Source of the DNA: Candidatus Nanoarchaeia archaeon
GTDB taxonomy: Archaea > Nanobdellota > Nanobdellia > WJKC01
Length of the DNA: 64,000 nucleotides
Reading direction: 5' to 3'
Assembly (NCBI GenBank): GCA_041653515.1
Contig: JBAZFG010000002.1
Location: 125,632 to 189,631 of the forward strand
The position numbers were made by a program, and so were the translations under genes. Under the pieces are notes generated by a model. It saw nothing but the letters and a program-made list of their open reading frames with translations. It searched no databases and had not been told where the DNA came from. The stretch's first letter is position 1. Every line of letters starts with the position of its first letter. This document shows positions 40,179 through 62,995 of this stretch, one piece after another.

Positions 40179-40339
40179 GCCCCCGCAGTTTGGAATAAAC
40201 TTTTTTCAATAAGCAGGGGGATCAGGAAATGCCTAAAACTGAGGGGGATGTGCCCCCGCGGTTTGGAATAAACTTTTTTCAATAAGCAGGGGGATCAGGA
40301 AATGCCTAAAACTGAGGGGGATGTGCCCCCGCGGTTTGG
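40179..40339. repeat. tandem direct repeat, 73-bp unit x 2.2, GC-rich hairpin element
   Basis: Units 40179-40251 and 40252-40324 differ at one position (a/g); a third partial unit 40325-40339 ends at the aglB stop codon; the reverse complement matches the elements at 57371 and 62941. Confidence 0.85.
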
Positions 40340-42958
40340 TTACCAGGCAGGACTGCCGTTATCAACCCATGGCATCATTGCAGTATAATTAATGTGATAA
40401 ATATTAATGTTGGTTGGGTCGTATTGTGATATTAATCCTCTTATGTTTAGTGAGTTACTTGAGTAGACTAATTCAAAACCAGGTATTGTTTCGTTCAATA
40501 AGTATAAGTGAGTCATGAAACGATCATTTAAGTCTGATGGGATGTGAATTAAGCCTCCTTCAATGAATTCAATACAAGAGTCAATGCCGTTAGTCTCATT
40601 AAAGTAAGTGCAGCCATTACCATAATCACAAACGCAATTGTATGGGTGAAGCGTGTTACTGCCCGTAGCTAAGTTATAAACTACTGCTTGTGGCTGACCA
40701 AAAGATTGGTCTTCAGCCATTGGTATTAAAACGTTTACTATGTAACTCTCGCCTTTAGGGAATAATACACCATCAATGATTGTGTCAGCGCCAACATAAC
40801 CTGGTGAGGCTAAGTAATTGAAAACTAGTAGTGTGCTGAATTGTTCAGGATTATACAAGTTATTATCCACTTGCTGGCTGTAAGTGTAAGGTGCGTAATA
40901 ACCTGGCCTGCCACCAATATTAGCCATCTGAACATATTTTAGTATATCATCATCCATGACTAATAAATAATTAGGCCTATTGCCTGTTTCATTATTCTTG
41001 AAGTAATCAAGTGAGTCATAAACCTCTGTCATGTTAAAGCCGCTAAACATTTGGCCGCCAATAACTTCATCCCATACTACTTGGAAGTTACCCCCATCAA
41101 CTGTTGTTGCCCGCTCGCCCATGGTTTGAACCCAGTAACCATAATCCCACCAATGAGTGAATACAGCGTTAGTGTCAGTGTTATTCCTAACCCAACTCAT
41201 TGATTCGCCCCAATCATTAGTGAAGCTTGGAATCATTGTTGAAGCATCTTCAACAATAACATAGTAACTCCATATTACTAATAGTATTGCGACTGCGTAA
41301 ATAGCTGTTGAGTAAACTTTATCACTTGTTATTTTGCTGATTAAATTATTTATCCGCTCAATAGCGTAAGCAGCTAATAACACGAATATTGGGGTGCTAG
41401 CAAAGACAATTCTTATTGCGCCCCTAGTTGCAATAACACTTAAAGCAAACCATAAGATGATTATTAGTTTACTTGGCGTTAACTCACCCCACTTACTGCT
41501 CTTATGGAATTTAATGTAAAATAATATTACTGTTAAAGCCAATAATGGCAGTGTTAGTAAGTAAGTGTTCTCAAAGAATAAATTAATTGCTTCATAACCG
41601 TTTAAGTTAACGAATTTGCTAAACATGAAGAATAAGATGAACACAGTAAACATTATCACTACTGATGTGGCTTTCTTGCCAAACTTACCTAATACTTCTT
41701 GAACTAATAATGCTCCACCAATAACAAATAATGGCACAAACCATTGAAGCCTATGCCACCAGTCAACCCCGTTAGGGTCATAGAACCATGGGGCTTGGTT
41801 TTCAGTAACTGAGACGCAGAAAGCACAAGTGCCAAAAGGGTTTAGTATTGTATCAAGAGCGCCTTGTAGTTTGGCGCCAACATCAAATAATCCAGTTAAT
41901 TGCATTACTGGCAGACCAACCATTATTAATACTGCCATCATTATTACGAAATAAAAATTATCAGGCCACTTCTTGTTCTTGATTAAGTTACTGATGAATA
42001 AATCATAAACAATTTTTAATCCAAGCACTAACGCTGTGATAGTTGGTATTAAGAACATATCAATCATGATTAAACCAAAACCATTATAGCGCAGGGTCAT
42101 TGTAGCGTTCATTAATATTATTGGGATGAACCACGCAAAGTAAGTGATTACGTTTTTATTGCTTAATTTACCCATTAAAGCAAGGAATAGGAATGCTAAG
42201 CCAATGCTGAAGAATAAGAAGTTAGCCCCACCCCAAGTCAGGCTTGATAAGCCAGCTAATACGCCTGATATTAACCCGTAAATTAATGCTTGTTTAGTCT
42301 TATTTGCCCTAATTGATTTGACTAATGCATAAATCATGCTAAACCAAAAGACTGTTGCAAGCGCTTCCTTATCACTAAACCCTGCCATGGTCCTGAATAA
42401 ATATGATGGGATTAATGATAAAAACGCTGTGGCAATTAACGCTGTTTTCTTGTTGAATATTTCTTTAGTCATTAAGAAAAAGAATATCATGCTTATTACA
42501 AACGCAACAACTGGGTAAATCATTGAATAACTCATTAGTTCGCCGCCAAATAATGGGTGAAATATTGTGTATAATCCTGCAACAAAGTAAGACACTAATT
42601 GGTGCTCCTTGAAAGTGCTAAAACCTTCTGGAAAATAACGAAATGAATCCATTTCAGGCAGGGTGCCCTGCTCCACTAGTGTTTCAGTGTAGCGGTAAAA
42701 AACATACGGGTCAAGACCAAGCAATAAACCATTGTATAATGGTATGCTTAGCATCCTAACCCAAGCCCCAACTAATATAATACTAATTAATGCTGCGTAT
42801 AATATTATCTTCTTATTTTCTTTGAGGAATTTTACTGCTTCGCCAAAATTAAGTTCATCCTCATCAGTGGTTGCTGGTTTTTTCTCTTTCTTATCACTGC
42901 TAAACCAGCCTTTAATCTTTCGCCCTATCTCCCCGAAATCAATTTCTTCATCACTCAA
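40340..42958 (-). CDS. aglB: archaeal oligosaccharyltransferase AglB (STT3 family)
   Basis: 'FTHWWDYGYWVQTMG' canonical WWDYG motif; N-terminal 'GLDPYVFYRY' first-loop DxD-type motif; ~13 TM helices plus a C-terminal soluble domain. Confidence 0.85.
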   Translation of the reverse strand: MSDEEIDFGEIGRKIKGWFSSDKKEKKPATTDEDELNFGEAVKFLKENKKIILYAALISIILVGAWVRMLSIPLYNGLLLGLDPYVFYRYTETLVEQGTLPEMDSFRYFPEGFSTFKEHQLVSYFVAGLYTIFHPLFGGELMSYSMIYPVVAFVISMIFFFLMTKEIFNKKTALIATAFLSLIPSYLFRTMAGFSDKEALATVFWFSMIYALVKSIRANKTKQALIYGLISGVLAGLSSLTWGGANFLFFSIGLAFLFLALMGKLSNKNVITYFAWFIPIILMNATMTLRYNGFGLIMIDMFLIPTITALVLGLKIVYDLFISNLIKNKKWPDNFYFVIMMAVLIMVGLPVMQLTGLFDVGAKLQGALDTILNPFGTCAFCVSVTENQAPWFYDPNGVDWWHRLQWFVPLFVIGGALLVQEVLGKFGKKATSVVIMFTVFILFFMFSKFVNLNGYEAINLFFENTYLLTLPLLALTVILFYIKFHKSSKWGELTPSKLIIILWFALSVIATRGAIRIVFASTPIFVLLAAYAIERINNLISKITSDKVYSTAIYAVAILLVIWSYYVIVEDASTMIPSFTNDWGESMSWVRNNTDTNAVFTHWWDYGYWVQTMGERATTVDGGNFQVVWDEVIGGQMFSGFNMTEVYDSLDYFKNNETGNRPNYLLVMDDDILKYVQMANIGGRPGYYAPYTYSQQVDNNLYNPEQFSTLLVFNYLASPGYVGADTIIDGVLFPKGESYIVNVLIPMAEDQSFGQPQAVVYNLATGSNTLHPYNCVCDYGNGCTYFNETNGIDSCIEFIEGGLIHIPSDLNDRFMTHLYLLNETIPGFELVYSSNSLNIRGLISQYDPTNINIYHINYTAMMPWVDNGSPAW

Positions 42959-42965
42959 TTTAACA

Positions 42966-43784
42966 TCATACTCCTAATGAAATGTAAACCTCTAATAATC
43001 CCCCGATTATTAATACAATGCTTGCAAGCACTATTAAATCAATGGAATCAAGTAATACCTCTTTAAATTTATTACTCTTAGGGTCATGCCTTATTACTGC
43101 TGCACTAATAATGCCTCCTGCAATGCCTGCGAGGAAGTAAGCAATTAATTCTGGCAGACCATGAACTAAGTAACGACCAAACCCTAGTGGCACTGCCTGA
43201 AAATAAGAAGACCAATTACTAATATTGGTTTTAATTGCGTTGCCAATAGCGACGCCGAGCACGCTTGAGTTCCACGTGATAATAAATATTGCGCCCGCCC
43301 CGTATAATAAGCTAAATATTAAGCAGAAGAGTAATACTTTGAAGTTATTGGCTAATATTATTTTTAATAAATCTGTTTGCACTGCATTGCCTTGAATGGC
43401 TGATGAGTTAATGCTTCTGATAGTGTTTATTTGCTCTGAGAATATTTTTGCGTTAAGGCTGTCAGGCATTATGACATACCATGTGGTGAATGTTATTAAT
43501 AATCCCATTGACATGAAGAATATTACGCCGAGCACATCTTTATGATTGCCAATTAAGGGGTATTGTTTTTTGGTGAAATCCTCTGATTCCTCTCGTTTTA
43601 GCACGTTAACTAGTAATGGCACGCCAGCCATTGTTGTAAGAAAAACCATACTTAATGACGGGTCTGATGGGAATAACCACATGCTGACTACTAAGCCAAG
43701 GCTCGCGTATATCACGCCTAATATTGTCATTTTCCAAGGCTTGGCTCTAACTTCTTTACTGCTTAATATTGACTCAAAAACCAT
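42966..43784 (-). CDS. integral membrane protein (SpoIIM/DUF95-like)
   Basis: 272 aa, about six hydrophobic helices; no catalytic motif recognised. Confidence 0.35.
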   Translation of the reverse strand: MVFESILSSKEVRAKPWKMTILGVIYASLGLVVSMWLFPSDPSLSMVFLTTMAGVPLLVNVLKREESEDFTKKQYPLIGNHKDVLGVIFFMSMGLLITFTTWYVIMPDSLNAKIFSEQINTIRSINSSAIQGNAVQTDLLKIILANNFKVLLFCLIFSLLYGAGAIFIITWNSSVLGVAIGNAIKTNISNWSSYFQAVPLGFGRYLVHGLPELIAYFLAGIAGGIISAAVIRHDPKSNKFKEVLLDSIDLIVLASIVLIIGGLLEVYISLGV

Positions 43785-44838
43785 TAATCACCTCTAATTT
43801 TCGGCTCCTGCCTTGGAATCCTTCGCCAGTATCAGTTGCTTTGATTAGTCCTTGTTTTCTTAATCGGTTAATGTAGCGCCTAAAACTCCTAATGCTTAAT
43901 TCGCCATGTATCTCGCGGTAATTCTTGTAAGCATCGCCGCTAATAATATTAGGGTTCTCTTTTATGATGTTAATTATTTTTTCTTCATGGTCGCTTAATT
44001 CCTGAGGTAAGTTAATAGTTATTGTCTTAATTGCTTCTTCAACGTGCTTGACTGTTATTTTCCTGCTAGCATCCCGCTCAGCCCTGCGTCCAGCTTCTAA
44101 TAATAAGTTGATTGCTTTCCTAACATCTGTGCCTGAATTAATACTTACTTCATGGACTACTCCTTCGCTTACAACACTTGGGTGGAACGCTTGTTTGGCC
44201 CTGCGTTCAATAATGTTTTTCATCTCGCGCGTAGTGTATGGCTTGAACTCCATGTTATTAAGGTTTAATCGCGACATTAATCGTGGTTCAATATAATTCT
44301 TGTACTTAGGGTTGTTAGTGACCATTAAGATGCATACCCGTTCTAAGTTTAGTAATGAGTATATTATGTCAAGGTCTTTTATTTTATCCACTTCATCAAG
44401 GCAGACTACTGCTCCTTTTTCCCTTAGTTTTCTCATCGCGTTATTAAGTATTTCTTCGGTCGGCACACCTTTAGGGGGATAGAGCATGCCTAATCGTCGC
44501 GCTATCTCTAAAGCTATTGTGTGAGTGGTCTGGCTTTCCCAGCAATTAATGAATACTGGTACAATATCGCTGGTCTCTTTTAATTCGTTAAAAATATATT
44601 TGATGCTCGCTGTCTTGCCAAGCCCAGGCATGCCGTGGATGAATACATTACTCCCTAAGCGATTTTGTAATAATGGTTTGATGAAACTAGCTATTTCTTT
44701 AATCTCATTGTCCCGTTCAGGCATTTCTTCTGGTTGGAATTTATAATCGAGAATAGTTTCATCCTTGAACAAAGTCTCGTTGTCCATCAGGATATCTTTG
44801 AATAAGCCCCCCATAATAGTAAGGGACACGCTAATCAT
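43774..44838 (-). CDS. orc1: Orc1/Cdc6 replication initiator (AAA+)
   Basis: Walker A 'GMPGLGKTAS'; 'VCLDEVD' Walker B; C-terminal winged-helix region. Confidence 0.85.
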   Translation of the reverse strand: MISVSLTIMGGLFKDILMDNETLFKDETILDYKFQPEEMPERDNEIKEIASFIKPLLQNRLGSNVFIHGMPGLGKTASIKYIFNELKETSDIVPVFINCWESQTTHTIALEIARRLGMLYPPKGVPTEEILNNAMRKLREKGAVVCLDEVDKIKDLDIIYSLLNLERVCILMVTNNPKYKNYIEPRLMSRLNLNNMEFKPYTTREMKNIIERRAKQAFHPSVVSEGVVHEVSINSGTDVRKAINLLLEAGRRAERDASRKITVKHVEEAIKTITINLPQELSDHEEKIINIIKENPNIISGDAYKNYREIHGELSIRSFRRYINRLRKQGLIKATDTGEGFQGRSRKLEVINGF

Positions 44839-44892
44839 TATTAAAGGTTCCGATAATAAGTCTTAAATAATTGTTAAGCACAATAATTAATC

Positions 44893-45384
44893 ATGGCAAA
44901 GGAGTTTTCAGATAATTTAGGTGATAAAGCTAATGAGGATTATCAGCAAACACTTGAGATTATTTTTAGCTCAATTCTTGACCCATTGTTTGAGTTACAA
45001 AACGATGTTTTTGAGTTAAAGGGTTATGTGACTAATGTGCTGCCTGATTATATTAAAAAGTTAGTTACAACTGGTGTTGAAGAATTATACGTTAAAATAA
45101 TTGCATTCTTTAATGAGCGTGACCGAAAAATAAATGATTATTTTGACCAACAAAGAGGTCAGATTAATCAGCCAACTAATATTCCTGTTAATAGTTATGT
45201 TGTAGGTAACACTGCTATTGGTTTTAAGACGCTTGATGATTTAACCCCGCCACCGCCGCCTAAGAAGCTTGATCAATCATTTGAGAGTTCTATGTGTGAA
45301 GTAAAAAATAAACAGGATACTGTTCGTAAAAATATTATTGATGAATTAAAAGAATTGTTTACTAAGCGCGGCCCAATTGATTAA
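44893..45384 (+). CDS. hypothetical protein
   Basis: 163-aa ORF, acidic, 'PPPPPKK' linker; AT-rich. Confidence 0.4.
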   Translation: MAKEFSDNLGDKANEDYQQTLEIIFSSILDPLFELQNDVFELKGYVTNVLPDYIKKLVTTGVEELYVKIIAFFNERDRKINDYFDQQRGQINQPTNIPVNSYVVGNTAIGFKTLDDLTPPPPPKKLDQSFESSMCEVKNKQDTVRKNIIDELKELFTKRGPID

Positions 45385-45848
45385 TTTCTTAGTATATTAA
45401 CTGCTTTGATTGCTTTAATGAGCATTTTCTTGTTGACTGGTTTATTGCTTTTTAATGCGTTTTGTTGTTGTTTCCTATGCAATTCATTTATTGAGTAGCT
45501 TAGTATTACTTCAACACTTTTATCATAGTAACCGCTGGTTTTTAAGTAATAAGTGCCGTTTCCGAAATAAGTTATTCTAATATTATACTCATCGGTTTTA
45601 CTAAGCCCTACTGCTGTGAATGAATTCTTTGCTGGTGTCTTAATTGATTGATTAATCATCTGTTCTAACTGGCTGATTGATAACTCTTTTTGGTTAAGTG
45701 TTTTAAGGCTTTTTTCTTTAGCACTGATTAATTCAAGTGTTAACCCGCTTAGCCAGCCAATTGCAACGTATGTTTTTCCTGTTATTGCTTTGCTCATTTC
45801 TTGAGCAACGAATAACTCATCATCAAATTTTAGTGATGTGTACATCAT
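45381..45848 (-). CDS. hypothetical protein
   Basis: 155-aa ORF with no recognisable motif. Confidence 0.4.
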   Translation of the reverse strand: MMYTSLKFDDELFVAQEMSKAITGKTYVAIGWLSGLTLELISAKEKSLKTLNQKELSISQLEQMINQSIKTPAKNSFTAVGLSKTDEYNIRITYFGNGTYYLKTSGYYDKSVEVILSYSINELHRKQQQNALKSNKPVNKKMLIKAIKAVNILRN

Positions 45849-45877
45849 TAATTGTTTCTTTTTATTATCTTATATAC

Positions 45878-46393
45878 TTAATTGGTTGATTCAAATAAGT
45901 TGTTGAGTGTTTTGTAATCAATTATTAGGCTTTTTTTTAGCTGAAATTTTGTTGTGTTAATTAATTGTTCTTGGTTTAAGTCTTTGATTTTGTTTACTTT
46001 GATGATTACATCATCCTCGTTCTTGATTATTACTGAGTCAATAGTATTGTATTGGGTAAACGTATTAGTTCTTAACTCAAATTGTTTGTTCTTCTTAACT
46101 ATTTTAAGGAAACTAAAATAACCTTCATCAAATAAAGGTTCTTTCATTGAATCATTAATTATGTTGTTAAACTCATTTTTGTTAATAAATTTATATGGGT
46201 TAATTATTATTAATCTAACCTCATCTAATCTTAACATACCTATTAATTGCTCTCTTCTTCTTCCCATTAATGCTGCTAAATTGATTGGTCCATGGTTGAA
46301 ATCATACCAGTAGTTAGTAATTAATTTATGGTCATTGCTCTCTCTAATCTTATGATTAACATCTGGTTTTGGTTTGTATTGGCCATTATTCAT
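45878..46393 (-). CDS. hypothetical protein
   Basis: 171-aa ORF with no recognisable motif. Confidence 0.4.
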   Translation of the reverse strand: MNNGQYKPKPDVNHKIRESNDHKLITNYWYDFNHGPINLAALMGRRREQLIGMLRLDEVRLIIINPYKFINKNEFNNIINDSMKEPLFDEGYFSFLKIVKKNKQFELRTNTFTQYNTIDSVIIKNEDDVIIKVNKIKDLNQEQLINTTKFQLKKSLIIDYKTLNNLFESTN

Positions 46394-46444
46394 ATTCTTT
46401 ATTACCCATAATCTTTTTTATAACAATTACTGTCCTACAATCCC

Positions 46445-47440
46445 ATGGGTGTTAATATTCGCGATTTAGTTACGCCAGTTAGGACAGACCTTAAGTCTTT
46501 ATCTGGCTGTAAGATTGGGGTTGACGCTTTTAACTGGTTATACCAGTTTATCTCAACTATCCGCCAGCCTGACGGCACGCCGTTAATGGATTCTAAAGGC
46601 AGGGTGACTAGTCATTTAACTGGCTTATTTTATCGGGTGTTTAAGTTGCTTGAGTATGGGATTAAGCCTTGTTTTGTTTTTGACGGCAAAGCGCCTGATT
46701 TTAAGTTAGTGACTGCTGAGCGTGTTAAGCGTAAGGTTGAGGCTAAGCGTAAGTATGCGCAAGCGTTGGCTGAGGAGGATTTTGTTCGCGCCCGCAGTCT
46801 GGCAGGTCAGACGAGCCGATTAACTGGTGAAATGGTATCTCAGGCTAAGGAGTTAATCATTGCTATGGGCTTGCCTGTTATTCAGGCGCCAAGCGAGGGC
46901 GAGGCCCAGATTGCTTATATGACTAGTCAGGGTGATTTTTGGGCTAGTGCTAGTCAGGATTATGATACTTTGTTGTTTGGTAGTCCGCGGTTGGTTAAGA
47001 ATATTAATATTGTTGGCAAGAAGCGCTTGCCTCGTGGTGGTTTTGTTGAGGTTGTGCCTGAAGTGATTGAATTAAAATCATTACTTGAATCACTTGGCTT
47101 GTCCCGAGAGCAATTAATTCAGCTTGGCGTATTAGTTGGTACTGATTTTAATCCTGGCGGGGTTAAGGGTGTTGGGCCTAAGACTGCGCTTAAATTAGTC
47201 CGCGCTCATACTAATCCTTTTACGCAAGTTGATTGGGTATCCAGTATTAAACCTGAGTTTATTATTGATTTTTTCCTTCATCCACCAGTGATTAAGGATT
47301 ACAAACTGGTTTGGTCTGCGCCTGATTTTGATAAAGTTAAGTCAATCTTAACTTCATTTGAGTTTAGTGAGACAAGGATTGAGAATGTTTTTAAGAAATT
47401 CCGTGAGTCAGGTCAATCACAATTAAATAAGTGGTTTTAG
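46445..47440 (+). CDS. fen1: flap endonuclease FEN-1
   Basis: 'MGVNIRDLV...CKIGVDAFNWLYQF...KPCFVFDGKAP' N-domain; 'GTDFNPGGVKGVGPKTALKL' H3TH motif. Confidence 0.85.
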   Translation: MGVNIRDLVTPVRTDLKSLSGCKIGVDAFNWLYQFISTIRQPDGTPLMDSKGRVTSHLTGLFYRVFKLLEYGIKPCFVFDGKAPDFKLVTAERVKRKVEAKRKYAQALAEEDFVRARSLAGQTSRLTGEMVSQAKELIIAMGLPVIQAPSEGEAQIAYMTSQGDFWASASQDYDTLLFGSPRLVKNINIVGKKRLPRGGFVEVVPEVIELKSLLESLGLSREQLIQLGVLVGTDFNPGGVKGVGPKTALKLVRAHTNPFTQVDWVSSIKPEFIIDFFLHPPVIKDYKLVWSAPDFDKVKSILTSFEFSETRIENVFKKFRESGQSQLNKWF

Positions 47441-48112
47441 TTATTTTCTTTTTTTCTTGAAAAAACTCTTAGCAGGTCCTTCCTTGATCGCCCAGCCAAA
47501 ACCAATGCCAATAGCAAGGCTAATACCAAGACTAACCCCTAATACAATATACTTAAAAGTGTCTTCGAGTAAGCTTGTGTTAGTTAGGCCGAATTTTGGT
47601 AAAGCCATTACCACTGCAAAGAATAATATAATGCCATAAACAATTTCTGCTATTGTCTCGTTGAATGGTATTGCGTTGCTCTTGATTTTCTTGCGCACGA
47701 AGTCAGCAAATACCATTGCAATAATTATTATTCCTGCCCCAACGCTTACTTCTGGTATTGCTCTTATTATGCCGTCAAATAATTCTGCCAAGAAAGTTAG
47801 GCTGGTCCTGACAGCTGCTTCTTTGAGGAATATAATGATAATGTAATACTTAACTATTAAGCTGACCGCATTAGTTACTGATATATTATAGAGTGATTCT
47901 TTTAGTTTCATTTTTTTTAGCCATTCATCAATTTGTGAGGCAGTCATTAATTTCTTGATTATTACTTCACTTATTTTTGCCACAACCCAACCGAGTAGTA
48001 ATATTAGTAATGCAGTGATTATTTTTGGCAAAGCTAGTATTAATGCTGTGGCTGATTCTTGTAATGCTTGAGCTGGTAATTCAACAATATTTAGTAAAGT
48101 ATCATTAACCAT
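47441..48112 (-). CDS. integral membrane protein
   Basis: Multi-TM; the likely start is the internal 'MVNDTLLNIV' rather than the upstream extension that overlaps the next gene. Confidence 0.4.
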   Translation of the reverse strand: MVNDTLLNIVELPAQALQESATALILALPKIITALLILLLGWVVAKISEVIIKKLMTASQIDEWLKKMKLKESLYNISVTNAVSLIVKYYIIIIFLKEAAVRTSLTFLAELFDGIIRAIPEVSVGAGIIIIAMVFADFVRKKIKSNAIPFNETIAEIVYGIILFFAVVMALPKFGLTNTSLLEDTFKYIVLGVSLGISLAIGIGFGWAIKEGPAKSFFKKKRK

Positions 48113-48170
48113 TATTCTTGTCTTAATGACCGTTAATTTTAAAACGTTTACTAATACTATTATTATTTGT

Positions 48171-48443: not shown

Positions 48444-48469
48444 ACCATTAATCTTTCTTTTTTCTTTTA

Positions 48470-49274: not shown

Positions 49275-49294
49275 AATCCTTATATGCGCATCCT

Positions 49295-53534: not shown

Positions 53535-53556
53535 ACTCCTTAAATAAATTCTTATT

Positions 53557-54126: not shown

Positions 54127-55597
54127 TCACTGCGTATAATTCTTTAGCATTATTATGTAATTGTTTTATTATTGCTGATACGTAATCAATACTGCTTATT
54201 ACTTCTTTTTTGTTTATTTCAAGTACTCGCATTTCCTCTGCGTTCCTGAAACCAAATCCCCTTCCTTCGCGGAATATTGGTGCAATGAATACTTCGTTTT
54301 CATTAAGGCCTGGGAGTACTTTGTTTGTTATTCCAATTGTTGTTCCAAGGTATTTTCTTGCAAATTCTTCGTTAATTAATACTGATGTTGTTTGATTAAT
54401 TCTCTCGCTTATTTCATTTAGGCTTTTGTTTCTAAGAACCATTTCACTTTTGAATTTTTGAGGCAGGCCAATCACAAAAGTACCTTTTGTTGCGATTGGT
54501 ATTTTTTCAATTCCAGTGCATTTATTATTCTTGAAAAATAGTCGTAGTAATCCCTTGCTGCTATTGAATGCAAGGACGTTTTTATCTGACCTTTTTTTTA
54601 TGTAATTGGGTTTACTGCTTAAGTAATCCTTGAATAATTCATTTATTTTTTTATCTGTCATTGGGTAAAAATTTATTCTTTCATATTCATCCGGATTAAT
54701 GCCACTTTCATTAATAGTTATTCTTTTATAATCACTTATGATTATTTTTTTTGCTTTCATTATTTCTTTGATGAATTCTACTTTCAATAAGTTCTCATCT
54801 AATTTGTTTGTGTAAGCTTCAAGCCATGCCGGCCTGAAGTCAATACTTAATGGTTTGCTGTCAGTGACTTGTATTACTATGTCCTGGCTTTTGTAATTGA
54901 ACATGAACAAGTTTTTCCATTCGCGCCAGCCAGTCTTGATTAGTAATTCGCTGATAGATTGGCCTGGGCTGAGTTCGTAAGAATAAGGGTTTATTCGCCT
55001 GACTGTTGCTGGTTTAGTGGTTGATTCTGTCATCACTGTTTTAGTTTCTTGTTTTGGCAGTTTCTGCGGGTATAATCCTACTTGCGCTACTGCCGCGCCC
55101 GCTTCATTATCCTGGTTTAATAATTTGTTAAGCACTAATTTTAGGAAACCATAAGCTTTTGTTTCTGTTATTTTTTCTTTGAATAATTGTTTCACTTCAT
55201 TGTTAATGCCTGTTTTCTTGAATGTGTTTTTTAATTCATTAATAAGTGTTTTTGAGTAATGCTCAAACATGAATTCATTGTAGTATTTGCTGAAGAAAAT
55301 ATTATCCTGGTTTAAGTCCTTAAGTGAGTTAATTGCTTTTAGTGTTTTGAAGTCATTGGTGTTAAAAATCTTCTTGCGTCTCATTGAGTGAAGTATTTTT
55401 TCTTCAACAATTTTTTGCTTAGCAGGGTTCATAACAGTGTTGGCTATCCTGATAAGCCATTTGAATAAGTTGTAATTAATTGAGTTGTTTGAAAGGTTTT
55501 TTAATTGCTCGGCTGACGCATTAATGATGGTGATTAATTCTTCATTACTTAAATTAAGACTGCTCTTCCTGCTGTTAAACCTGAAGTTAACTATCAT
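54098..55597 (-). CDS. hypothetical protein, 499 aa
   Basis: Long ORF with no recognised motif; C-terminal 'IFREGRGFGFRNAEEMRVLEI'. Confidence 0.45.
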   Translation of the reverse strand: MIVNFRFNSRKSSLNLSNEELITIINASAEQLKNLSNNSINYNLFKWLIRIANTVMNPAKQKIVEEKILHSMRRKKIFNTNDFKTLKAINSLKDLNQDNIFFSKYYNEFMFEHYSKTLINELKNTFKKTGINNEVKQLFKEKITETKAYGFLKLVLNKLLNQDNEAGAAVAQVGLYPQKLPKQETKTVMTESTTKPATVRRINPYSYELSPGQSISELLIKTGWREWKNLFMFNYKSQDIVIQVTDSKPLSIDFRPAWLEAYTNKLDENLLKVEFIKEIMKAKKIIISDYKRITINESGINPDEYERINFYPMTDKKINELFKDYLSSKPNYIKKRSDKNVLAFNSSKGLLRLFFKNNKCTGIEKIPIATKGTFVIGLPQKFKSEMVLRNKSLNEISERINQTTSVLINEEFARKYLGTTIGITNKVLPGLNENEVFIAPIFREGRGFGFRNAEEMRVLEINKKEVISSIDYVSAIIKQLHNNAKELYAVINNQLIVTF

Positions 55598-55621
55598 ATA
55601 ATTGATTTAGCATTTTTTTGT

Positions 55622-56797
55622 TTAAGTAATTAGTCTTTCCCTGATTTTAGTGACTTCGTTTCTTAGTTTTTCTTCATTAATGCCCAATAAGTTCTTGCCA
55701 TCACGAACAATTTCTTTTCCTTTTAAGTAAACGCTTTTGATTGCGTTCTTATTCATTATTTTAGCTACAAATTCACTAACTGTCTTAAATGGTTTTAATT
55801 GGCTCATATCAATTAGTGAGAAACTAGCTTCGCTTTCTGGCCCGAATGGCTCATGAGTCATAGTGTATGCTTGATTAATTGTTACGCCAGTGAGCTCGTA
55901 GGACTCCCATGCTTCATTTAATATTGATGATGATGGGTTCCAAGCGTAACTGTCAGTGCCTAGTAACATTTTAACATTATTATTAAGCATTACTTTGTTT
56001 GGCGGCGCGTTATCACTAATCGCTTTATTGCTCGTCGGGCAGTGCATTACTTGAACGTTATTTTCAGCTAACATTAATATGTCCTTGCTGTCAGCGTAAG
56101 TGCAATGAGCTAACCTTAAGTCATGCTCAAGCATTCCAAGACTATTCAAGTAATCAATTGTTCTCATGCCAGTTAATTTCTTTATATGCTTAACATCCTC
56201 AAGTGTCTCGCATGCGTGCATGTGAATTGGCAGGTCATTTTCCTGTGCAAACAATAATCCTTCTTTTATTAATTGTGGTGTGCATTCATACTCGTTAGCT
56301 AAGCCTAACATTATTTTATTGCCGTACTTCTTTTTTAATTCAAGCGTTTGGTTGAATTGTTTGCTAATACTGCTTTTCTCTTTATGAGCATCCTTGACTG
56401 CAAGGCAAGCAGTGTAACCTAACTTGCATTTATTAATTGCTTTAATTACTGGCTCAGGGTTCATGTCCATGGTGTCAACATGAGTCACGCCTTCCTTGAT
56501 TGATTCAAGGCAGGCTAACAGTGATGCTTTGTAAACATCAATTGTTTTGCGCCTGTCATGAACCTTAAAACCAATATTATCAAAATACTCATATTTTTTC
56601 AAGCCAAGCGCAGCCCCACTCACTGCTCGACTACCAAGGTGAACGTGAGCGTTAGTTAATCCTGGCAGTAAGAATAAGCCAGTGCAATCAACGCCTTTAC
56701 TCAGGTTGTTCTTAATGTAATGAACTGATTGGTCAAAGAATATGTCTGTCTTGATTAACCGACCACCTTTCAGAATAGTGATATTATTGAGTATCAT
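55622..56797 (-). CDS. amidohydrolase (MTA/SAH-deaminase or cytosine/guanine-deaminase-like)
   Basis: 'LPGLTNAHVHL' HxH metal site; 'HMHACE' and 'GTDSYAWN' later motifs. Confidence 0.65.
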   Translation of the reverse strand: MILNNITILKGGRLIKTDIFFDQSVHYIKNNLSKGVDCTGLFLLPGLTNAHVHLGSRAVSGAALGLKKYEYFDNIGFKVHDRRKTIDVYKASLLACLESIKEGVTHVDTMDMNPEPVIKAINKCKLGYTACLAVKDAHKEKSSISKQFNQTLELKKKYGNKIMLGLANEYECTPQLIKEGLLFAQENDLPIHMHACETLEDVKHIKKLTGMRTIDYLNSLGMLEHDLRLAHCTYADSKDILMLAENNVQVMHCPTSNKAISDNAPPNKVMLNNNVKMLLGTDSYAWNPSSSILNEAWESYELTGVTINQAYTMTHEPFGPESEASFSLIDMSQLKPFKTVSEFVAKIMNKNAIKSVYLKGKEIVRDGKNLLGINEEKLRNEVTKIRERLIT

Positions 56798-56823
56798 TGA
56801 TTAATCTTTAAGTATTTTAATGC

Positions 56824-57300
56824 TTAAATAATATATTTCTCAAACAAGTTGCCTGGTCCTTTACTTGTTTTATAAAGCGTGTGTTTTTTTAGCCAATTAA
56901 TTAAGTTCATAGTTTTCTTATTATTAGTTAAGTGCAAGCCCCATGTTGATGGGTCACAAATGTATTCTTCTTCTTGATAAGTAAATTTATTCCAAACGTG
57001 ACTTAATGGTTCATTAAAGAACTCATTTGTAAGTAAGTAATTTCTGCCTTCAATGATTTTATTGTAAGCTTTACCCATTATCATAATTGTTTTAAATTGT
57101 TTATTCTCTGATAAGACGTTGTTTAGGAATTGTGCGAAGTGATTGCATAAACCTCCTTTATTTATGAATTCATTAGTGGTGGTTTCCCAATTATTTGGCG
57201 CGCAATAAGGGATATTAGCAATCGTTTCTTCAAGAAATAATTCTAATTCCTTTATGTTATTTATTTTTTTATGATAAGTGTTGTCAATTATATCATTCAT
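56824..57300 (-). CDS. transglutaminase-like cysteine peptidase domain protein
   Basis: Putative Cys-His-Asp triad in order: 'GGLCNHFAQF', 'SHVWNKF', 'ICDPSTW'. Confidence 0.4.
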   Translation of the reverse strand: MNDIIDNTYHKKINNIKELELFLEETIANIPYCAPNNWETTTNEFINKGGLCNHFAQFLNNVLSENKQFKTIMIMGKAYNKIIEGRNYLLTNEFFNEPLSHVWNKFTYQEEEYICDPSTWGLHLTNNKKTMNLINWLKKHTLYKTSKGPGNLFEKYII

Positions 57301-57336
57301 GTTAAATTAACTTTTTTTTAGTATTTTTAAAGTTTT

Positions 57337-57488
57337 TTAGAAATCACTGAGTTTTTTCTGCTTAGTCCCTAACCGCAGGGAGGGGTGACCCCTCCCTTCA
57401 GTTTTAGGGTAATCCTGATTCCCACCCCCCTACGATTGTAATTATGCCAGAGACATGTTAGAAATCACTGAGTTTTTTCTGCTTAGTC
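57337..57488. repeat. GC-rich hairpin element (57371-57430) bracketed by a perfect 31-bp direct repeat (57337-57367 / 57458-57488)
   Basis: 'ttagaaatcactgagttttttctgcttagtc' occurs twice; the second copy is the last 10 codons plus stop of nucS; between them lies 'aaccgcagggaggggtgacccctcccttcagttttagggtaatcctgattcccacc'. Confidence 0.8.
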
Positions 57489-58210
57489 TTATCAACTATG
57501 TTCCTGTTTGGTGGTTCTACTTGGCAGAACTTAAAGCTCCAGTCATGGAGCATTTGTTCAGCGTTCTTAGTGATGCCTGGCGCTGCGATGTAACCAATGA
57601 CTTTGTCAATTCCTTTAGCTGCCTTGATTCTCTCAACGTAGCGCCTTAGTTGTTGGACCGCGCTAAGCCCGGCAGTCACTCGCTTACACTCAATAATTAT
57701 TAATGCTCCTTCACCATCATGGCCCATCACGTCAATAAAACCATATTTTGTTTGTTCTTCAAGGCTGACTGGCCTAAAGTCAATGCTAATAATATGTGGG
57801 TGCTCATAAATCATGCGCGCCATGTCAGCTTCACTGCCCATAATCATTACTTCTTCATCATCGCTTAGTTGGCCTGAGATTAGTAAGTCAATGCTGGTTA
57901 TTTTAATGACCATTTGTTCTCTTGGGTTGATTGATTCAGCAGTGATGAATAATGAGTCGCCAGCTTCAACCCTGATGCTCGCGCCTTCTTTTATCCAGTT
58001 AACTGGGTTCCTGCCTGTTGGTTTGTGAACTAATAGTGTTTTGTCTGTTTTGATGGTGACTGCCCTGCCGCCCCGCTCGAGCTTTGAGTAAGCCCTGCCT
58101 TCATACTTAACCTCGCACTCGCAGTAAAGTGTGATTAACTCGTTTCGCTTGAGTGCTTGGTCTAATACGTTCTTGGTTGTATCAAAATCAGGTTTAACAT
58201 AATTGCTCAT
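57458..58210 (-). CDS. nucS: endonuclease NucS/EndoMS
   Basis: C-terminal RecB-like nuclease motif 'GFIDVMGHDGEGALIIIECKR'; N-terminal dimerisation/ssDNA-binding-like region. Confidence 0.7.
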   Translation of the reverse strand: MSNYVKPDFDTTKNVLDQALKRNELITLYCECEVKYEGRAYSKLERGGRAVTIKTDKTLLVHKPTGRNPVNWIKEGASIRVEAGDSLFITAESINPREQMVIKITSIDLLISGQLSDDEEVMIMGSEADMARMIYEHPHIISIDFRPVSLEEQTKYGFIDVMGHDGEGALIIIECKRVTAGLSAVQQLRRYVERIKAAKGIDKVIGYIAAPGITKNAEQMLHDWSFKFCQVEPPNRNIVDKTKQKKLSDF

Positions 58211-58263
58211 CTAATTCTTTATCTCGATACACATATAAATTGATTTTGTTATCTTTATTATTC

Positions 58264-58647
58264 ATGGAAGTTATTGTTGACATTTTTGATCCTAGCAAAC
58301 AGGAGTTCATTATTGGTGACCGTAGATTACCAAGCTACTTTGTTGGTAATGTAATTGGTCATTTAAAGGGTTATAAATTGTTAGGGGATGATAGTGTCCA
58401 GCAGATGCTTCCGTTACTTAATGAAATTGAATTAAATATGTATAAAACGCTTGATGATAAAACTACTCAATTAAGATTCTTGGCTTCTAAGCTGGTTGAG
58501 AAATTAACTTTTTTTGGCTCATATGACGAGCGAGTTATTATCTTAGAGGATTTCATTAACTCTGAATGTGATATGTATGTTAAGAAATTAAGGATTGATG
58601 ACCAGACTAAGAAAGAGTTAAAGCGCTTAATGGCTCTTACTCGATAA
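58264..58647 (+). CDS. hypothetical protein
   Basis: ORF taken from 'MEVIVDIF'; no motif recognised. Confidence 0.3.
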   Translation: MEVIVDIFDPSKQEFIIGDRRLPSYFVGNVIGHLKGYKLLGDDSVQQMLPLLNEIELNMYKTLDDKTTQLRFLASKLVEKLTFFGSYDERVIILEDFINSECDMYVKKLRIDDQTKKELKRLMALTR

Positions 58648-61456
58648 GTATTCCTGGTTTGCATGGCATTGCTTTCGGGTTATCTGCTTTGACTACATCA
58701 ACTTCTGTGTTATACTCTTGTTCAAGGAATTTGATTGCTTCGTTTAGTGATTGGTACTCACCATTCCTGTCTGGCGCGCTTAATGGCACGCGGCTTGGGT
58801 TCCTGATTAATGACTGGATGATGCCTGTCGCGTCCTTGGCGTGAGCTTTGACTGAAGCGTTCTTTAAGGCATTAGTAATTAATTCTTTTAAGTCATGCTT
58901 GTTCTTTGACTTAACCACTGATTTGTATAAGTCATACTTCCATTGGTCAGCGATGAATAATGTTATCTTTTTTGGTTTTGTTTTTATTATGCTTAATAAA
59001 CCATTAATGTCCTTGATTGTGTTCATTATTATTGATTCGTTCTGCTCAATTGATTGGTTAATCATTGATTCATTGATTTTTGGGAATCGGGCTAGTGAGA
59101 CAAACCCTTTGTTAATTTTGCTCCAAGCCTCCTCGCAGATGTGGGGTATTAATGGCTCGAGTGCTATCAGCCAGTCAGCTAGGAAAGTCCTGATTACACT
59201 ATTAAATTGTTGCGCGCTCACTCTTTTCTTGTAGTAGTTAAGCTCGTTCATGAACTCAAAGAAAATGTTAATTGCGTAAGGCCTAATCATGATATTACAT
59301 CCCTGCTCGTAAGCTTCTTTTATTCTTGAGTAAAAACGGCTGGTAATCCACTTGTCGATGCTGGTTAATTTCTTGGCTGGCAGCGCTTTACTTGCTGTCA
59401 GCACTAGATTAGCAAAATTAGTTATTTTTGTTTTGACGCTGGCAACCTCGTTCTCGCGCCAGTCAACTACTGAGTCAATGTCGCTTGAGCTTAATAAGAA
59501 CATTCTTAGTAAGTCAGCGCTGTACTTTTCAGCTACTTCAGCTAATGGTATAACGTTGCCTTTGCTCTTACTCATCTTAACCCCTTCGCGGATGACCATT
59601 TCGTTGAAACTTATTTCTTTTGGCCAGTACTTTTTGGGGAATATCTTGGTGTGGTGGAATAAGAAGAATGTTAGGTGGTTGCTGATGTGTGCTGGCGCAG
59701 TGTGGCGGTGGTCAAGTGGGTACCAATAAGTGAAATCTTCACGCATCTCACGCGCCCATTTAACTTTAAACTCACCTTTACCTAGGAATACATAATCAAA
59801 TAATTCAGGGGTTAATTGTTCTGGTTTTATTTTCTCGCGGTGAATAATGTTAATGATTGTGTAAAATGCCATGTAAATCGTTGAGTCGCTTAAGCTTTCA
59901 ATAACCCACTTGTCATCATAAGGCAGTTTTGTGCCTAAGCCTCTTTTGCGCGCGCAAGGTCTTTTCTCAAGCCAGTCAACCGTGTCAATGAATGACTTGC
60001 GGTACTTGTCAGGTATTATTGTCATATCATTAATTAATCTTCTAGTCTTGTCTTTCCATTCTTTGCTTGTGTAATCAAGGAACCATTGATCGTTAAGCAC
60101 TGCCACTATTACCTTGCCAGTGCAACGGCACTCAGCTTTGCGGCTGGTCTCGTAGAATGTGAAAGCGTCGCCTTGGCTTATTAGTTTGTTCCTGACACGG
60201 TCTTTAATTTCATTTATCTTGAGTCCTTTGAATTCAGCGCACTTTTCATTAAGCACTCCTTTGTAGAATTCATCTTTGTAAACCCTCTTGGTTGCTTGTT
60301 CTATTAGTTCCTTGTTGCGTTGGTTTTTAACGCCTAATTTGTTAATCATTTCAACTGCAGGTTCATTGCTGTAACCCTCAATGTTAATGATTGTTATTGG
60401 CTTAATTGACTTGATTTCCTTACTGTCAAGCCCGTAATCAGTTATGCCCTTGCTATCATTTTGCAAGTCTCTTAATGCTGCGTAATCAAACGGTGCGTGG
60501 GCTGGCACTGAGTAAACAATGCCTGTGGCCACGTCTGGGTCAACGAACTGACCTGGAAGTATTGGTACTTCAGTTCCTAATGGGGTGGTGACGTGTTTGC
60601 CTATTAGCTCTGTGCCAGCTAGTTCCCTTGTTTTCTTTAATCCTGTTTGCTGGTATTTTAATTTGTTGAATGCTTCAACGCTTATGATTAAGTTATTATT
60701 AGTCTCAACGTACAATGATTCAGGGTTAACCCATAAGTTAGTAATGCCATAAATTGTTTCAGGCCTTAGTGTACCTGCTACTAATTGTTTGCTGCCTAAA
60801 TCGAATTTGATTGCAGTGAACTCATTAATGCTTACTTTATCAGCGTCACCATCCTTAATATCATCCTCGCCAACAGCGTTGTCACAGTTAACACAGAAAT
60901 TAATTGGGTAACTACCCTGGGTTAATGCTTTGCCTTGTTTTAGTTTTTTAAACTGCCATTCAATAAATTTATTGTACTCTTTGTCGCCAGTGGTGAATTG
61001 TCTTGTCCAATCAACGCTGACCCCAATACTCTCAAAGTCTTGTCTGATAACGCTGGCGAAGTGCTTGGCAACGTTCATTGGTTCCTTGAATGACTCAATT
61101 ATCTTCTTGACTTTACTTTCATCTTTTTCTCTTAAGCGGACGTAATTAGTGAATAACTCGATGTAATTCTTATCACCTTTCCTTATGCGGTCGCTGATAG
61201 CTAATATTGGCGTGCCTGAGATGTGATAAGCCATGGGCCATAAGACATTATAACCTTGCTTTCGCTTGAAGCGCGCAATGAAGTCGCCGATACTGTAAGT
61301 CCTGCCGTGGCCAATATGGTAAGGGCCACTGGTATATGGGTATGGTACTGTGAAGAAATACTTCTTGCCTGTTTTTTTGGGCTCAAAGATTTTATCCTTA
61401 ACCCATTGCTTCTGCCACTTACGCTCTATTTTAGATAAATCCATCTTGTTAATCAC
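58637..61456 (-). CDS. leuS: leucyl-tRNA synthetase (archaeal type)
   Basis: 'PYPYTSGPYHIGHGRTY' HIGH; 'KMSKSKGNV' KMSKS; 939 aa with a CP1 editing-domain insertion. Confidence 0.9.
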   Translation of the reverse strand: MINKMDLSKIERKWQKQWVKDKIFEPKKTGKKYFFTVPYPYTSGPYHIGHGRTYSIGDFIARFKRKQGYNVLWPMAYHISGTPILAISDRIRKGDKNYIELFTNYVRLREKDESKVKKIIESFKEPMNVAKHFASVIRQDFESIGVSVDWTRQFTTGDKEYNKFIEWQFKKLKQGKALTQGSYPINFCVNCDNAVGEDDIKDGDADKVSINEFTAIKFDLGSKQLVAGTLRPETIYGITNLWVNPESLYVETNNNLIISVEAFNKLKYQQTGLKKTRELAGTELIGKHVTTPLGTEVPILPGQFVDPDVATGIVYSVPAHAPFDYAALRDLQNDSKGITDYGLDSKEIKSIKPITIINIEGYSNEPAVEMINKLGVKNQRNKELIEQATKRVYKDEFYKGVLNEKCAEFKGLKINEIKDRVRNKLISQGDAFTFYETSRKAECRCTGKVIVAVLNDQWFLDYTSKEWKDKTRRLINDMTIIPDKYRKSFIDTVDWLEKRPCARKRGLGTKLPYDDKWVIESLSDSTIYMAFYTIINIIHREKIKPEQLTPELFDYVFLGKGEFKVKWAREMREDFTYWYPLDHRHTAPAHISNHLTFFLFHHTKIFPKKYWPKEISFNEMVIREGVKMSKSKGNVIPLAEVAEKYSADLLRMFLLSSSDIDSVVDWRENEVASVKTKITNFANLVLTASKALPAKKLTSIDKWITSRFYSRIKEAYEQGCNIMIRPYAINIFFEFMNELNYYKKRVSAQQFNSVIRTFLADWLIALEPLIPHICEEAWSKINKGFVSLARFPKINESMINQSIEQNESIIMNTIKDINGLLSIIKTKPKKITLFIADQWKYDLYKSVVKSKNKHDLKELITNALKNASVKAHAKDATGIIQSLIRNPSRVPLSAPDRNGEYQSLNEAIKFLEQEYNTEVDVVKADNPKAMPCKPGILIE

Positions 61457-61545
61457 TTATTAACTCCTCTTTTTTTAACGTTGCGTAATTATTATCGCAT
61501 TATTTTTTTAAGATTTTTCCCAAGAAGACTTTAAATAATCCTAAT

Positions 61546-62748
61546 GTGTGTTCATTATTCATGCGCAATAATCTTAATAATTTCTTTGTTGAGCGCGTGA
61601 AGCACTTTAAGCACATGGCTTCATTATCCAATACTTTTTTCTTTTACTTGTTCGCCTGGGGTCTAGTCACGCCAATATTTAATATTCATATTAATGAAGT
61701 GACTAATTCACTTTTCTTGTCCGGCATTATCTTTTCTGTGTTTGGTTTTGCTAGAATATTTTTTGACCCGTCAATCGGTTTGTTATGCGACCGCGTTAAC
61801 CCTAAGAGATTATTGCAGGGTAGTCTATTGTCTTATACATTAATATTTTTCTTATACACGATTGCTAATAATTTTTATTTATTATTAATCGTGCGAGTAT
61901 TGCACGCAATTGCTTGTGCCATGCTCTGGATTTCTGGTTGGACTTTAGTTAGATTAAAGAGTAAAGGTAATTCTGCTCAGGAAGAGATTAGTGTTTGGTA
62001 CTCAGTTCAGTACATTGCTTATGTTATTGCTCCTTTAATTGGTGGCTCGTTGATAACAATGTTTTCGTGGCAACCTGTTTATTACTTAGCGTCAATAACT
62101 GCTTTTATTGCTTTTGTTTACGCTTCAATTAATGTTAAGAGTGTTCATACAAGTAATAATAGTAAGAAGCGGTTTAGGGATTTATGGCACCAGTTCTTCA
62201 TAAATAAATCATCATCAATTAGGCTAGTATTATTAACATTCCTTGAAATATTAATCGTGATTGGTTTCTATGAGTTCATGCCATTATTATTAGATCAGGC
62301 TGGGCTTAATATTGAGGAGATTAGCGTTGTGTTTGCTTTGGCTTATACTACCCCATTTATTTTATTCCCAGTAATTATTGGAGTTATTAGTGATAAGTAT
62401 GGTCGCAAAATACCAACTGCTATTGGTTTGATAATCATTAGCTTTGGGTTATTATTGTTCTGCAACGCCAGTACTTTTACTCAATTCCTGTTTTATACTT
62501 TCATTATTGTTACTGGTGATGCGTTTGTTAACTTAAGTTTTAACGCAGAGCTTAATGATATGACACCAAAAAACAGTGCTGGTGGTTTTACTGGTATTTT
62601 TGAGATGATTAAGGATTTGGCTGTGGCCATCGGCCCGTTGTTAGTTGGTGTTTTAAGTGCTGTAACTAATATTTCATTTGCTTTTATAATAATGAGTGTG
62701 ATGTCATTAGGCACTATATTAGTGCTTAAAGGGTTTAAGAATTTCTAA
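61546..62748 (+). CDS. MFS transporter
   Basis: About 12 TM helices; 'DRVNPKR' loop 2-3 motif region. Confidence 0.6.
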   Translation: MCSLFMRNNLNNFFVERVKHFKHMASLSNTFFFYLFAWGLVTPIFNIHINEVTNSLFLSGIIFSVFGFARIFFDPSIGLLCDRVNPKRLLQGSLLSYTLIFFLYTIANNFYLLLIVRVLHAIACAMLWISGWTLVRLKSKGNSAQEEISVWYSVQYIAYVIAPLIGGSLITMFSWQPVYYLASITAFIAFVYASINVKSVHTSNNSKKRFRDLWHQFFINKSSSIRLVLLTFLEILIVIGFYEFMPLLLDQAGLNIEEISVVFALAYTTPFILFPVIIGVISDKYGRKIPTAIGLIIISFGLLLFCNASTFTQFLFYTFIIVTGDAFVNLSFNAELNDMTPKNSAGGFTGIFEMIKDLAVAIGPLLVGVLSAVTNISFAFIIMSVMSLGTILVLKGFKNF

Positions 62749-62791
62749 AAGCAAGCCTTAAAAAGTAATTAATTCTTTTCTAAATATTAGT

Positions 62792-62935
62792 GGGCCCGTA
62801 GCGCAGTTTGGATAGCGCGACAGGCTTCTACACTCGACGCTTCGCGTCTCGTTCCGTCCTTCGGACGGCCGCTCGCTTAAAACGAGCGGGGGTGAGGATA
62901 CCTGTAGGTCGTGGGTTCAAATCCCTCCGGGCTCG
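62792..62935 (+). tRNA. tRNA-Arg(TCT) with 69-nt intron at canonical position 37/38
   Basis: Acceptor GGGCCCG/CGGGCTC, D-stem GCGC/GCGC, anticodon stem ACAGG/CCTGT separated by 'CTTCTA'+intron+'A'; T-loop TTCAAAT; one T-stem mismatch; the intron carries two hairpins (ccgtcc-ttc-ggacgg; gctcg-cttaaaa-cgagc). Confidence 0.7.
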
Positions 62936-62940
62936 CACGA

Positions 62941-62995
62941 AAACCGCAGGGAGGGGAGACCCCTCCCTTCAGTTCATCTCCTGATTCCCACCTCC
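62941..62995 (+). repeat. GC-rich hairpin element, copy immediately 3' of tRNA-Arg
   Basis: 'aaccgcagggaggggagacccctcccttcagtt...cctgattcccacc' is nearly identical to 57371-57430; 9-bp stem agggagggg/cccctccct. Confidence 0.8.

Follow-up and report, generated by a model that had tools for sequence, protein, structure and literature searches.

A GC-rich repeat of about 60 nt, here called E, occurs as four full copies and one 15-nt stub in a 64,000-nucleotide stretch of DNA from Candidatus Nanoarchaeia archaeon (GenBank assembly GCA_041653515.1, contig JBAZFG010000002.1, positions 125,632 to 189,631 of the forward strand; hereafter the window). We found that E is structured, behaves like a mobile element, and is not a terminator. 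In the reading that we favor and hold to be probable, E forms the folded, cis-acting core of a new, non-autonomous insertion element found in DPANN archaea, in which the fold fixes the 5' end, a copy of the target terminus keeps the invaded gene functional, and recombination between repeats amplifies the element. Elements of this family would be small, about 60 to 250 nt, with a core that folds as a single strand. A sequence-only reading of the window had put forward, as the alternative to mobility, a structured RNA or terminator module. The structural half of that proposal held, with compensatory variation and folding of one strand, and the terminator half did not; moreover, our evidence says that structure and mobility both apply.

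We scanned the window and its genome (1.12 Mb, 97% complete, assembled out of a groundwater sample) with a covariance model of E. The family alignment, A3, contains 114 distinct E sequences drawn from more than 230 loci. The four window copies scored E-values of 2e-15 to 6e-9, and the whole genome contained 12 copies at nine loci, with nothing further above noise. E is about 60% GC in a genome of 36% GC. A strict DNA pattern gave at least 112 matches in reference genomes and at least 120 in metagenome contigs, and the reversed control pattern gave none. Among the matches listed, nearly all genome records with E were metagenome-assembled genomes (MAGs) labelled Micrarchaeota, Aenigmatarchaeota, Altiarchaeota, Iainarchaeota, or Woese-/Nanoarchaeota; no organism names are attached to the metagenome contigs with E. 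Four matches in bacterial MAGs (L033, L064, L073, and L103; Clostridium, Terriglobales, Marvinbryantia, and one other) lacked the stem and were treated as chance fits of a degenerate pattern. The distribution of E is patchy. Of 151 genomes sampled from the class to which the window belongs, the covariance model detected E in 6, four of them in one other family, and E was absent from all three same-family relatives of the window genome. E-positive relatives in this class include a record labelled Woesearchaeota (L007, which is G014 and is identical to L037). In the class containing the Micrarchaeota MAG G061, 47 of 151 sampled genomes carried E at 1 to 23 copies each. Copies were near-identical inside one genome, stems included, and differed from genome to genome. 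A literature search, limited in coverage, found no description of E, which is no proof of novelty.

Comparison across A3 strongly supports a conserved fold. The stem P1 consists of 7 bp of purines against pyrimidines, in which all seven pairs vary on both sides and 95% of cells pair, and its covariation score was reached by 0 of 500 shuffles. Within the window alone, compensation rests on two stem types only. The sequence-only reading had reported four hairpin copies with preserved pairing, which we located with their 9-bp and GGGGG/CCCCC stems, together with a TCAGTT...CCTGAT(T)CCC box, which is present in all four; it had also looked to covariation across genomic copies for support, which P1 provides. 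The 9-bp stem strand AGGGAGGGG and its complement lie at 57377-57385/57389-57397 and 62948-62956/62960-62968 (four matches against 0.08 expected).

In the predicted fold, a second helix, P0, stacks beneath P1, giving one long irregular helix, and includes the pairs A5-U35, A6-U34, C7-G33, and G9-C31 and the invariant mismatches C8.A32 and C10.U30. Pairing of AACCGC with UCAGUU in this helix is supported by replacement of C7-G33 with A-U in three sequences from three genomes and by exact compensation of A5-U35 to G-C in two sequences from two lineages. R4-Y36 is G.U in 47 sequences. A mutual-information scan and pair counts further indicated a covarying, pseudoknot-like contact of the 5' tail across a 2-nt bulge, in which C2 pairs with G40 and N3 with N39 (CG 60, UA 22, GC 13, UG 5). 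The 5' flank belongs to the motif. The TCAGTT...CCTGAT box of the sequence-only reading was first taken to pair within itself, TCAGTT with CCTGA, as a TCAG/CTGA hairpin (P2a). We rejected it, as that hairpin is invariant save for uncompensated changes while AACCGC/UCAGUU compensates exactly, making the 5' AACCGC the real partner of TCAGTT. Across E pairs, G.U outnumbered A.C (69 versus 30), and therefore the E strand does the folding, as RNA or as single-stranded DNA (ssDNA).

Minimum free energy folding of single E copies yielded z-scores of only -0.4 to -1.9; therefore, thermodynamics alone would have missed E. No Rfam 15 family, including hammerhead, twister, pistol, hatchet, hepatitis delta virus (HDV), and riboswitch models, matched E; only the tRNA passed the gathering threshold, and permissive scans of E returned two chance-level leader matches (E about 0.5-0.7). 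About 20 nucleotides of the core are invariant, and many of these are mismatched or left unpaired. The compensatory variation is real, and by comparative analysis E is predicted to fold into a conserved structured element.

The same alignment points to a third strand. Base by base, and in parallel register, the 3' pyrimidine run after CCUGAU tracks the purine strand of P1, with C for G and U for A, as in GGGGGAGG with CCCCCTCC or GGGAAACC with CCCTTCC. At shift 0, 692 of 805 layers (86%) form canonical C.G-C or T.A-T triples, 559 of them C.G-C, compared with 50 to 70% at other shifts. Third-strand T occurs opposite 133 of 154 A-T pairs (permuted mean, 77; maximum, 91), and an independent count found 84 double changes against 30.6 in shuffled alignments (0/500), again with the best score at slide 0. 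In the two 9-bp window copies the third strand has A, not U, opposite an A-U pair, a minority state (three cases). We considered Watson-Crick pairing between the 3' C-run and the G-run and rejected it, since the C-run mirrors the purine strand and is not its reverse complement (GGGGGAGG...CCCCCTCC); this mirror relation therefore excludes Watson-Crick templating as the origin of the third strand. The observed register is the one that a predicted pyrimidine-motif major-groove triplex of six to seven layers would require.

Evidence for mobility came from the flanks. Across the family, E is flanked by direct repeats of the target, 13 to 67 nt long, that correspond to a gene start from ATG, a gene end with its stop codon, or the 3' or 5' part of a tRNA. 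In the window genome, nearly every copy is bracketed by such a repeat of local sequence. At three loci there the repeat is the first 30 to 37 nt of a gene, counted from the ATG; at several others it is the last 27 to 39 nt, with the stop codon included or approached. Repeats begin at an ATG or a stop codon at five of eight loci, and E has at least nine different targets in this genome. Across the family, flanking repeats scoring 14 or more were found at 33 of 109 loci compared with 1 of 109 in a displaced control, and we collected 74 distinct repeat pairs, 38 of them perfect. In many cases the repeat is a tRNA 3' part, broken either inside the T-loop or at the T-stem. In two paralogous tRNA genes, the same element occupies the identical D-loop position, and the repeats there are locus-specific.

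These repeats define one exact and one ragged end. The left repeat ends 0 to 12 nt (mode, 4) ahead of ACCGC, placing the 5' end exactly at the nucleotide where structure begins. The 3' tail ranges from 0 to 190 nt and can be a shortened form of a longer conserved tail, as seen for two window-genome loci (C4 64486 versus C4 22486) and in the Micrarchaeota MAG CSMAG_931, where homology among copies begins at -5 and ends at +70 to +220. As a separate observation on that MAG (L116, L020, L062, and L085), E there makes up the 5' end of a larger unit, conserved over 150 to 220 nt, that holds a second large inverted repeat, CTGCAGAGGG ... CCCTCTGCA; this unit may be a longer non-coding RNA.

Tandem arrays of E, tail, and repeat occur at three of the nine window-genome loci, with units of 73, 101, and 107 nt. 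Their intervals are identical to one another and to the flanking gene, where a CRISPR would have unique spacers. Spacer-free head-to-tail arrays also occur outside this genome, and at one locus (L141) three E units directly follow a tRNA. At L141:6250-6370:- and L148:8410-8580:+ we also noticed a second, related class of motif that adjoins or alternates with E. It has the layout of E, with a 5' AGACAA, a G-stem, TTTTTCCTTGATTTCC, and a C-run, and the core boxes ACCTCAT, CGCGGTT, and CCCTTCA replace ACCGC, TCAGTT, and CCTGAT. At the C4 64486 locus (L006:288-325; C4 about 64573-64610), the gene 3' end is present three times, with a 38-nt insert (CAAACTTTTCCGCTCCGCGCAAAACCTTGACC...) between the second and third gene-end copies; this insert has an E-like start and is not E, and it may be a decayed or different element.

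Members of unequal repeat pairs often differ at 3-periodic, synonymous sites (7/7 differences in L154, 4/4 in L074, and 3/3 in L104), and adjacent spacings of such differences were 3-periodic in 18 of 35 cases (P = 0.02), which is not significant without L154. The synonymous-site differences suggest that one repeat copy sometimes came from a diverged orthologue.

The window illustrates insertion at three loci. On the minus strand, E copy 1 (40284-40340; 55.4 bits, E 2.3e-13; GGGGG/CCCCC stem) begins on the final base of the aglB stop codon (40340-42), directly behind an STT3/AglB open reading frame (ORF; 40340-42958) with an STT3 Pfam match. Copy 2 (40211-40267, minus strand; 55.9 bits; GGGGG/CCCCC stem) is the second unit of a 73-nt tandem array at 40178-40339 (Tandem Repeats Finder period 73, 2.2 copies, 98% matches). 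By direct reading, this array ends in the stub of a third E (CCAAACTGCGGGGGC; 40179-40193, minus strand), which sits 37 nt ahead of the start (40141) of a GT4 gene (ORF 39122-40141; Pfam Glycos_transf_4).

Copy 3 (57367-57429 by covariance model and 57368-57430 in the layout of the locus, plus strand; 62.2 bits, E 2.3e-15) lies antisense to the NucS gene and has the 9-bp P1 AGGGAGGGG/CCCCTCCCT with the third strand TCCCACCCCCC. Its left direct repeat (57337-57367, plus strand) is an orphan of the last 31 nt of NucS, stop codon included and read as the reverse complement, and is identical at 31 of 31 positions to the right repeat (57458-57488, plus strand), which is the genuine NucS 3' end (NucS ORF 57458-58210, minus strand). 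The tail that links copy 3 to the right repeat (57431-57457, plus strand) is locus-specific, being neither duplicated nor kept between loci.

Copy 4 (62938-62995, plus strand; 40.5 bits, E 5.7e-9), in which an internal segment is shortened, lies in sense 2 nt past its insertion target, a 144-nt tRNA gene with a long intron of about 70 nt (62792-62935, plus strand). This tRNA was missed by ARAGORN in bacterial mode and detected by Rfam (RF00005, 49.7 bits). An orphan, diverged tRNA 3' part lies beyond E (63054-63077, plus strand; 19/24 identical, 79%, to 62915-62938, from the T-loop to the 3' end). Contigs of other organisms in the same sample omit 71 to 83 nt at this tRNA, which suggests intron-less versions of the gene.

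Contigs from two DNA metagenomes, one from groundwater that may be the source (X1) and one from a landfill (X2), were used to look for empty sites. The groundwater contigs break exactly at the 31-nt repeats (window 57338-57487), and a 150-nt contig bridges them; E elements therefore fragment DPANN assemblies. As a side observation, landfill contigs are 100% identical to the window at 57483-57721, 62671-62917, and 63020-63184, with E itself uncovered, and from this identity a near-identical strain lives in a different habitat, the landfill.

Insertions at gene 5' ends appear compatible with gene function. At four of four independent loci where E lies in sense within the first 30 to 40 nt of a gene and has a GAGG tail, a truncated ORF crosses E and stops at an ATGA or TAATG on the real start, with the GAGG 7 to 10 nt upstream of the true start codon. 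The GAGG and the stop/start overlap would make re-initiation possible and so keep the gene. In distant genomes (L027, L083, and L099) and at two window-genome loci (L002 and L005; C1 201393 and C4 22486), the conserved extension GAAA(A)CGAG(G/A) follows the third strand. The Shine-Dalgarno-like GAGG of some tails thus seems to be a property of an E subfamily and not to have evolved in place.

Two cis-acting roles in relation to neighboring genes had to be weighed against these data. An intrinsic terminator or mRNA-stabilizing hairpin in the 3'-untranslated region of genes, as the sequence-only reading proposed, would suit a stem that is stable and covarying and the two of three window loci (aglB and tRNA) at which E lies in sense right after the gene end, positions that the reading had given correctly. 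However, that reading had named random orientation relative to flanking genes as grounds for abandoning the idea, and random orientation is what we found: the flanking genes of about 120 loci were oriented (-,-) in 24 cases, (+,-) in 21, (-,+) in 18, and (+,+) in 16, and the nine window-genome loci were five sense and four antisense. The terminator reading fails because of this randomness. Furthermore, several copies lie upstream of genes or within their first 30 to 40 nt, and no oligo-T tract of the kind found in archaeal terminators is present at or after the hairpin, where UCAGUU...CCUGAU and the C-run follow in all copies. Termination would need neither the invariant unpaired nucleotides nor the 5'-tail contact nor the triplex, and flanking target duplications have no place in such a model, leaving this role very unlikely. 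A riboswitch or other cis-regulatory RNA of the neighboring gene is more improbable still. Several copies do stand just ahead of a start codon and have a GAGG after them, and triplex-containing pseudoknots are known from the SAM-II, preQ1-II, and guanidine-III riboswitches. The neighbors of E are unrelated to one another, however (STT3, NucS, tRNA, a major facilitator superfamily transporter, aminoacyl-tRNA synthetases, and EF-2), and this lack of gene association contradicts a riboswitch, as do the occurrence of both orientations, the tandem arrays, and the flanking target duplications.

Under the insertion-element reading, the fold would act as the cis-acting signal that sets the 5' end of E and would be used by a trans-acting machinery or by the nucleic acid itself. 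Insertion would occur at the ends of transcription units, where a second copy of the gene terminus is carried or created so that the gene may survive; at gene 5' ends, the GAGG tail and the stop/start overlap would permit re-initiation. Recombination between flanking repeats would produce the arrays and could also excise the element.

Several results weigh against this reading. No known mobilizing enzyme is consistently found with E. Reverse transcriptase (PF00078) and Y1 transposase (PF01797) were each absent from the window genome and present in one of five E-rich genomes; Cas1 was likewise found in one of the five, and TnpB was over the cut-off in three of the five and absent from the window genome. 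Tyrosine recombinase (PF00589) was found in one of the five, and its one copy in the window genome has no E nearby. No ORF family recurs beside E in clusterings of neighbors at 115 and then 235 loci; the clusters contain only housekeeping families, with class I aminoacyl-tRNA synthetases and EF-2 among them, roughly as often as chance predicts. The strict E pattern had no match in viral contigs. No X1 or X2 contig joins across an E-free site and no presence/absence polymorphism was seen in them, X2 being without coverage of E. About two thirds of loci lack a detectable flanking repeat, and plain staggered-cut duplication fails to account for repeats that stop at coding boundaries and for the synonymous differences. 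A run of C+.G-C triples is disfavored at neutral pH, and both the triplex and the transcription of E are putative. We also considered a full-size integrated element with a repeat partner at kilobase distance and rejected it, with two downstream and three upstream matches in 114 loci amounting to noise. Separately, the window genome's only tyrosine recombinase (389 amino acids; 27915-29084 on another contig, C10) lies beside a putative C5 DNA methyltransferase, and its surroundings (C10 about 23300-29100) look, as judged by eye, like a restriction-modification island.

Two further explanations take the fold itself as the active agent. E may be a new small RNA that processes itself, for instance a ribozyme whose self-cleavage falls on its own 5' edge, so that RNAs of about 60 nt are released from arrays or co-transcripts, possibly circularized by the archaeal RtcB ligase, and spread via RNA joined to host transcript ends. 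We consider this unlikely, although it would account for the compact, multiply knotted fold with its invariant nucleotides, the excess of G.U over A.C, and the coincidence of the element boundary with the first structured nucleotide, as well as for the spacer-free head-to-tail arrays, the related core variant in L141 and L148, repeats that often end at transcript or mature tRNA ends, and the lack of association with a gene class. Against it, no Rfam ribozyme model matches, neither the window genome nor four of the five E-rich genomes has a reverse transcriptase, and antisense insertions have repeats that start at a stop codon, which is not a plausible transcript end. Its bolder form, to which we give somewhat less credence, would make E a previously undescribed catalytic or self-processing RNA with a core of six to seven C+.G-C/U.A-U triple-helix layers locked by the 5'-tail contact and a mobility, independent of any transposase, integrase, or reverse transcriptase, that joins to and duplicates host transcript or gene ends.

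Doubtful too, and ranked just after these, is the possibility that E acts as folded ssDNA, serving, much as integron attC sites, IS200/IS605 ends, or rolling-circle origins do, as a recombination or nicking site on which an HUH or tyrosine enzyme acts in trans, encoded by some plasmid or virus outside the bins. The layout of integron attC sites is an R-box, a spacer, and a stem, which the P0 box CNRAAC/GUUY..N'G with its 2-nt bulge, mismatched spacer, and variable stem resembles. One-ended or rolling-circle transposition typically leaves one exact and one ragged end together with tandem arrays, and recombinases classically target the T-loop and T-stem junctions of tRNAs. This possibility is at odds with the scarcity of PF00589 and Y1_Tnp among E-rich genomes, with the absence of any integrase or Rep gene near E at 235 loci, and with the empty search of viral contigs; the attC consensus beyond AAC/GTT is not present, and such systems make no long target duplications. 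Weighing all of these data, we favor the non-autonomous insertion element.

DPANN archaea have tiny genomes with very few recognized mobile elements or structured RNAs. E adds a motif of about 60 nt, present in hundreds of copies across at least five candidate phyla, and the comparative evidence that it offers for a long triple helix rich in C.G-C, a rarity in biology, is unusually clean. Its insertion signature, in which the 5' end is exact, the 3' end is ragged, and duplication of the gene or tRNA terminus keeps the gene working, matches no described mechanism of transposition or integration. If the fold is catalytic or is recognized by a new enzyme, E would represent a new class of RNA or DNA element. 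In practical terms, E accounts for gene starts that are split or duplicated in DPANN MAGs, for orphan pieces of tRNA, and for contig breaks there; annotators should not call its copies terminators or extended ORFs.

Known systems share parts of this picture. Major-groove RNA triple helices, including the element for nuclear expression (ENE) of MALAT1 and PAN, the SAM-II, SAM-V, preQ1-II, and guanidine-III pseudoknots, and telomerase RNA, have, as predicted for E, a third strand parallel to the purine strand and three-way covariation, and ENE-like triplexes occur in transposable-element RNAs too. In contrast to these, the E triplex would be mostly C.G-C and not U.A-U and would use an internal 3' pyrimidine run instead of a poly(A) tail or ligand pocket, and E looks inserted, occurs in multiple copies, and has no gene-class association. 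Repeats that bear ribozymes (retrozymes, hammerhead satellites, and HDV-like ribozymes at retrotransposon 5' ends) resemble E in that a structured unit defines the 5' end and in their head-to-tail arrays, but no known ribozyme fold matches E and no reverse transcriptase accompanies it. Integron attC sites likewise have an AAC/GTT box paired in the folded strand, extrahelical bases, a mismatched spacer, a variable stem, and strand specificity. E departs from them in lacking the RYYYAAC/GTTRRRY consensus, an IntI, and ORFs between arrayed copies, and its triplex strand and CCUGAU box have no counterpart in attC.

Among mobile elements, MITEs (miniature transposable elements with inverted repeats) and repetitive extragenic palindromic (REP) sequences with their mosaic form (BIME) are, like E, short, non-coding, multi-copy, mostly intergenic, without an adjacent transposase, and near-identical within each genome. 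E differs in ending with CNRAACCGC... and a variable tail in place of terminal inverted repeats and short fixed-length duplications; its repeats of 13 to 67 nt track gene termini, only one of its two ends is exact, the second being ragged, and no DDE or RAYT partner was found. IS200/IS605-type elements (PATE) use a Y1 HUH transposase and make no target duplication, whereas duplications are present with E and Y1 is mostly absent. Retroelements of the SINE-like, retrozyme, group II, or DGR kinds depend on a reverse transcriptase, which the window genome and four of the five E-rich genomes lack. Integrative elements at tRNA and gene ends and their CIME-like miniatures share with E a duplicated terminus (attL/attR), in which an intact copy is accompanied by a displaced and sometimes diverged orphan, with identity typically highest beside the junction. 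Compared with these, the E insert is just 60 to 250 nt, this one family has dozens of different targets where a site-specific element has a single att specificity, most E-rich genomes contain no integrase, and no long-range repeat partner was found.

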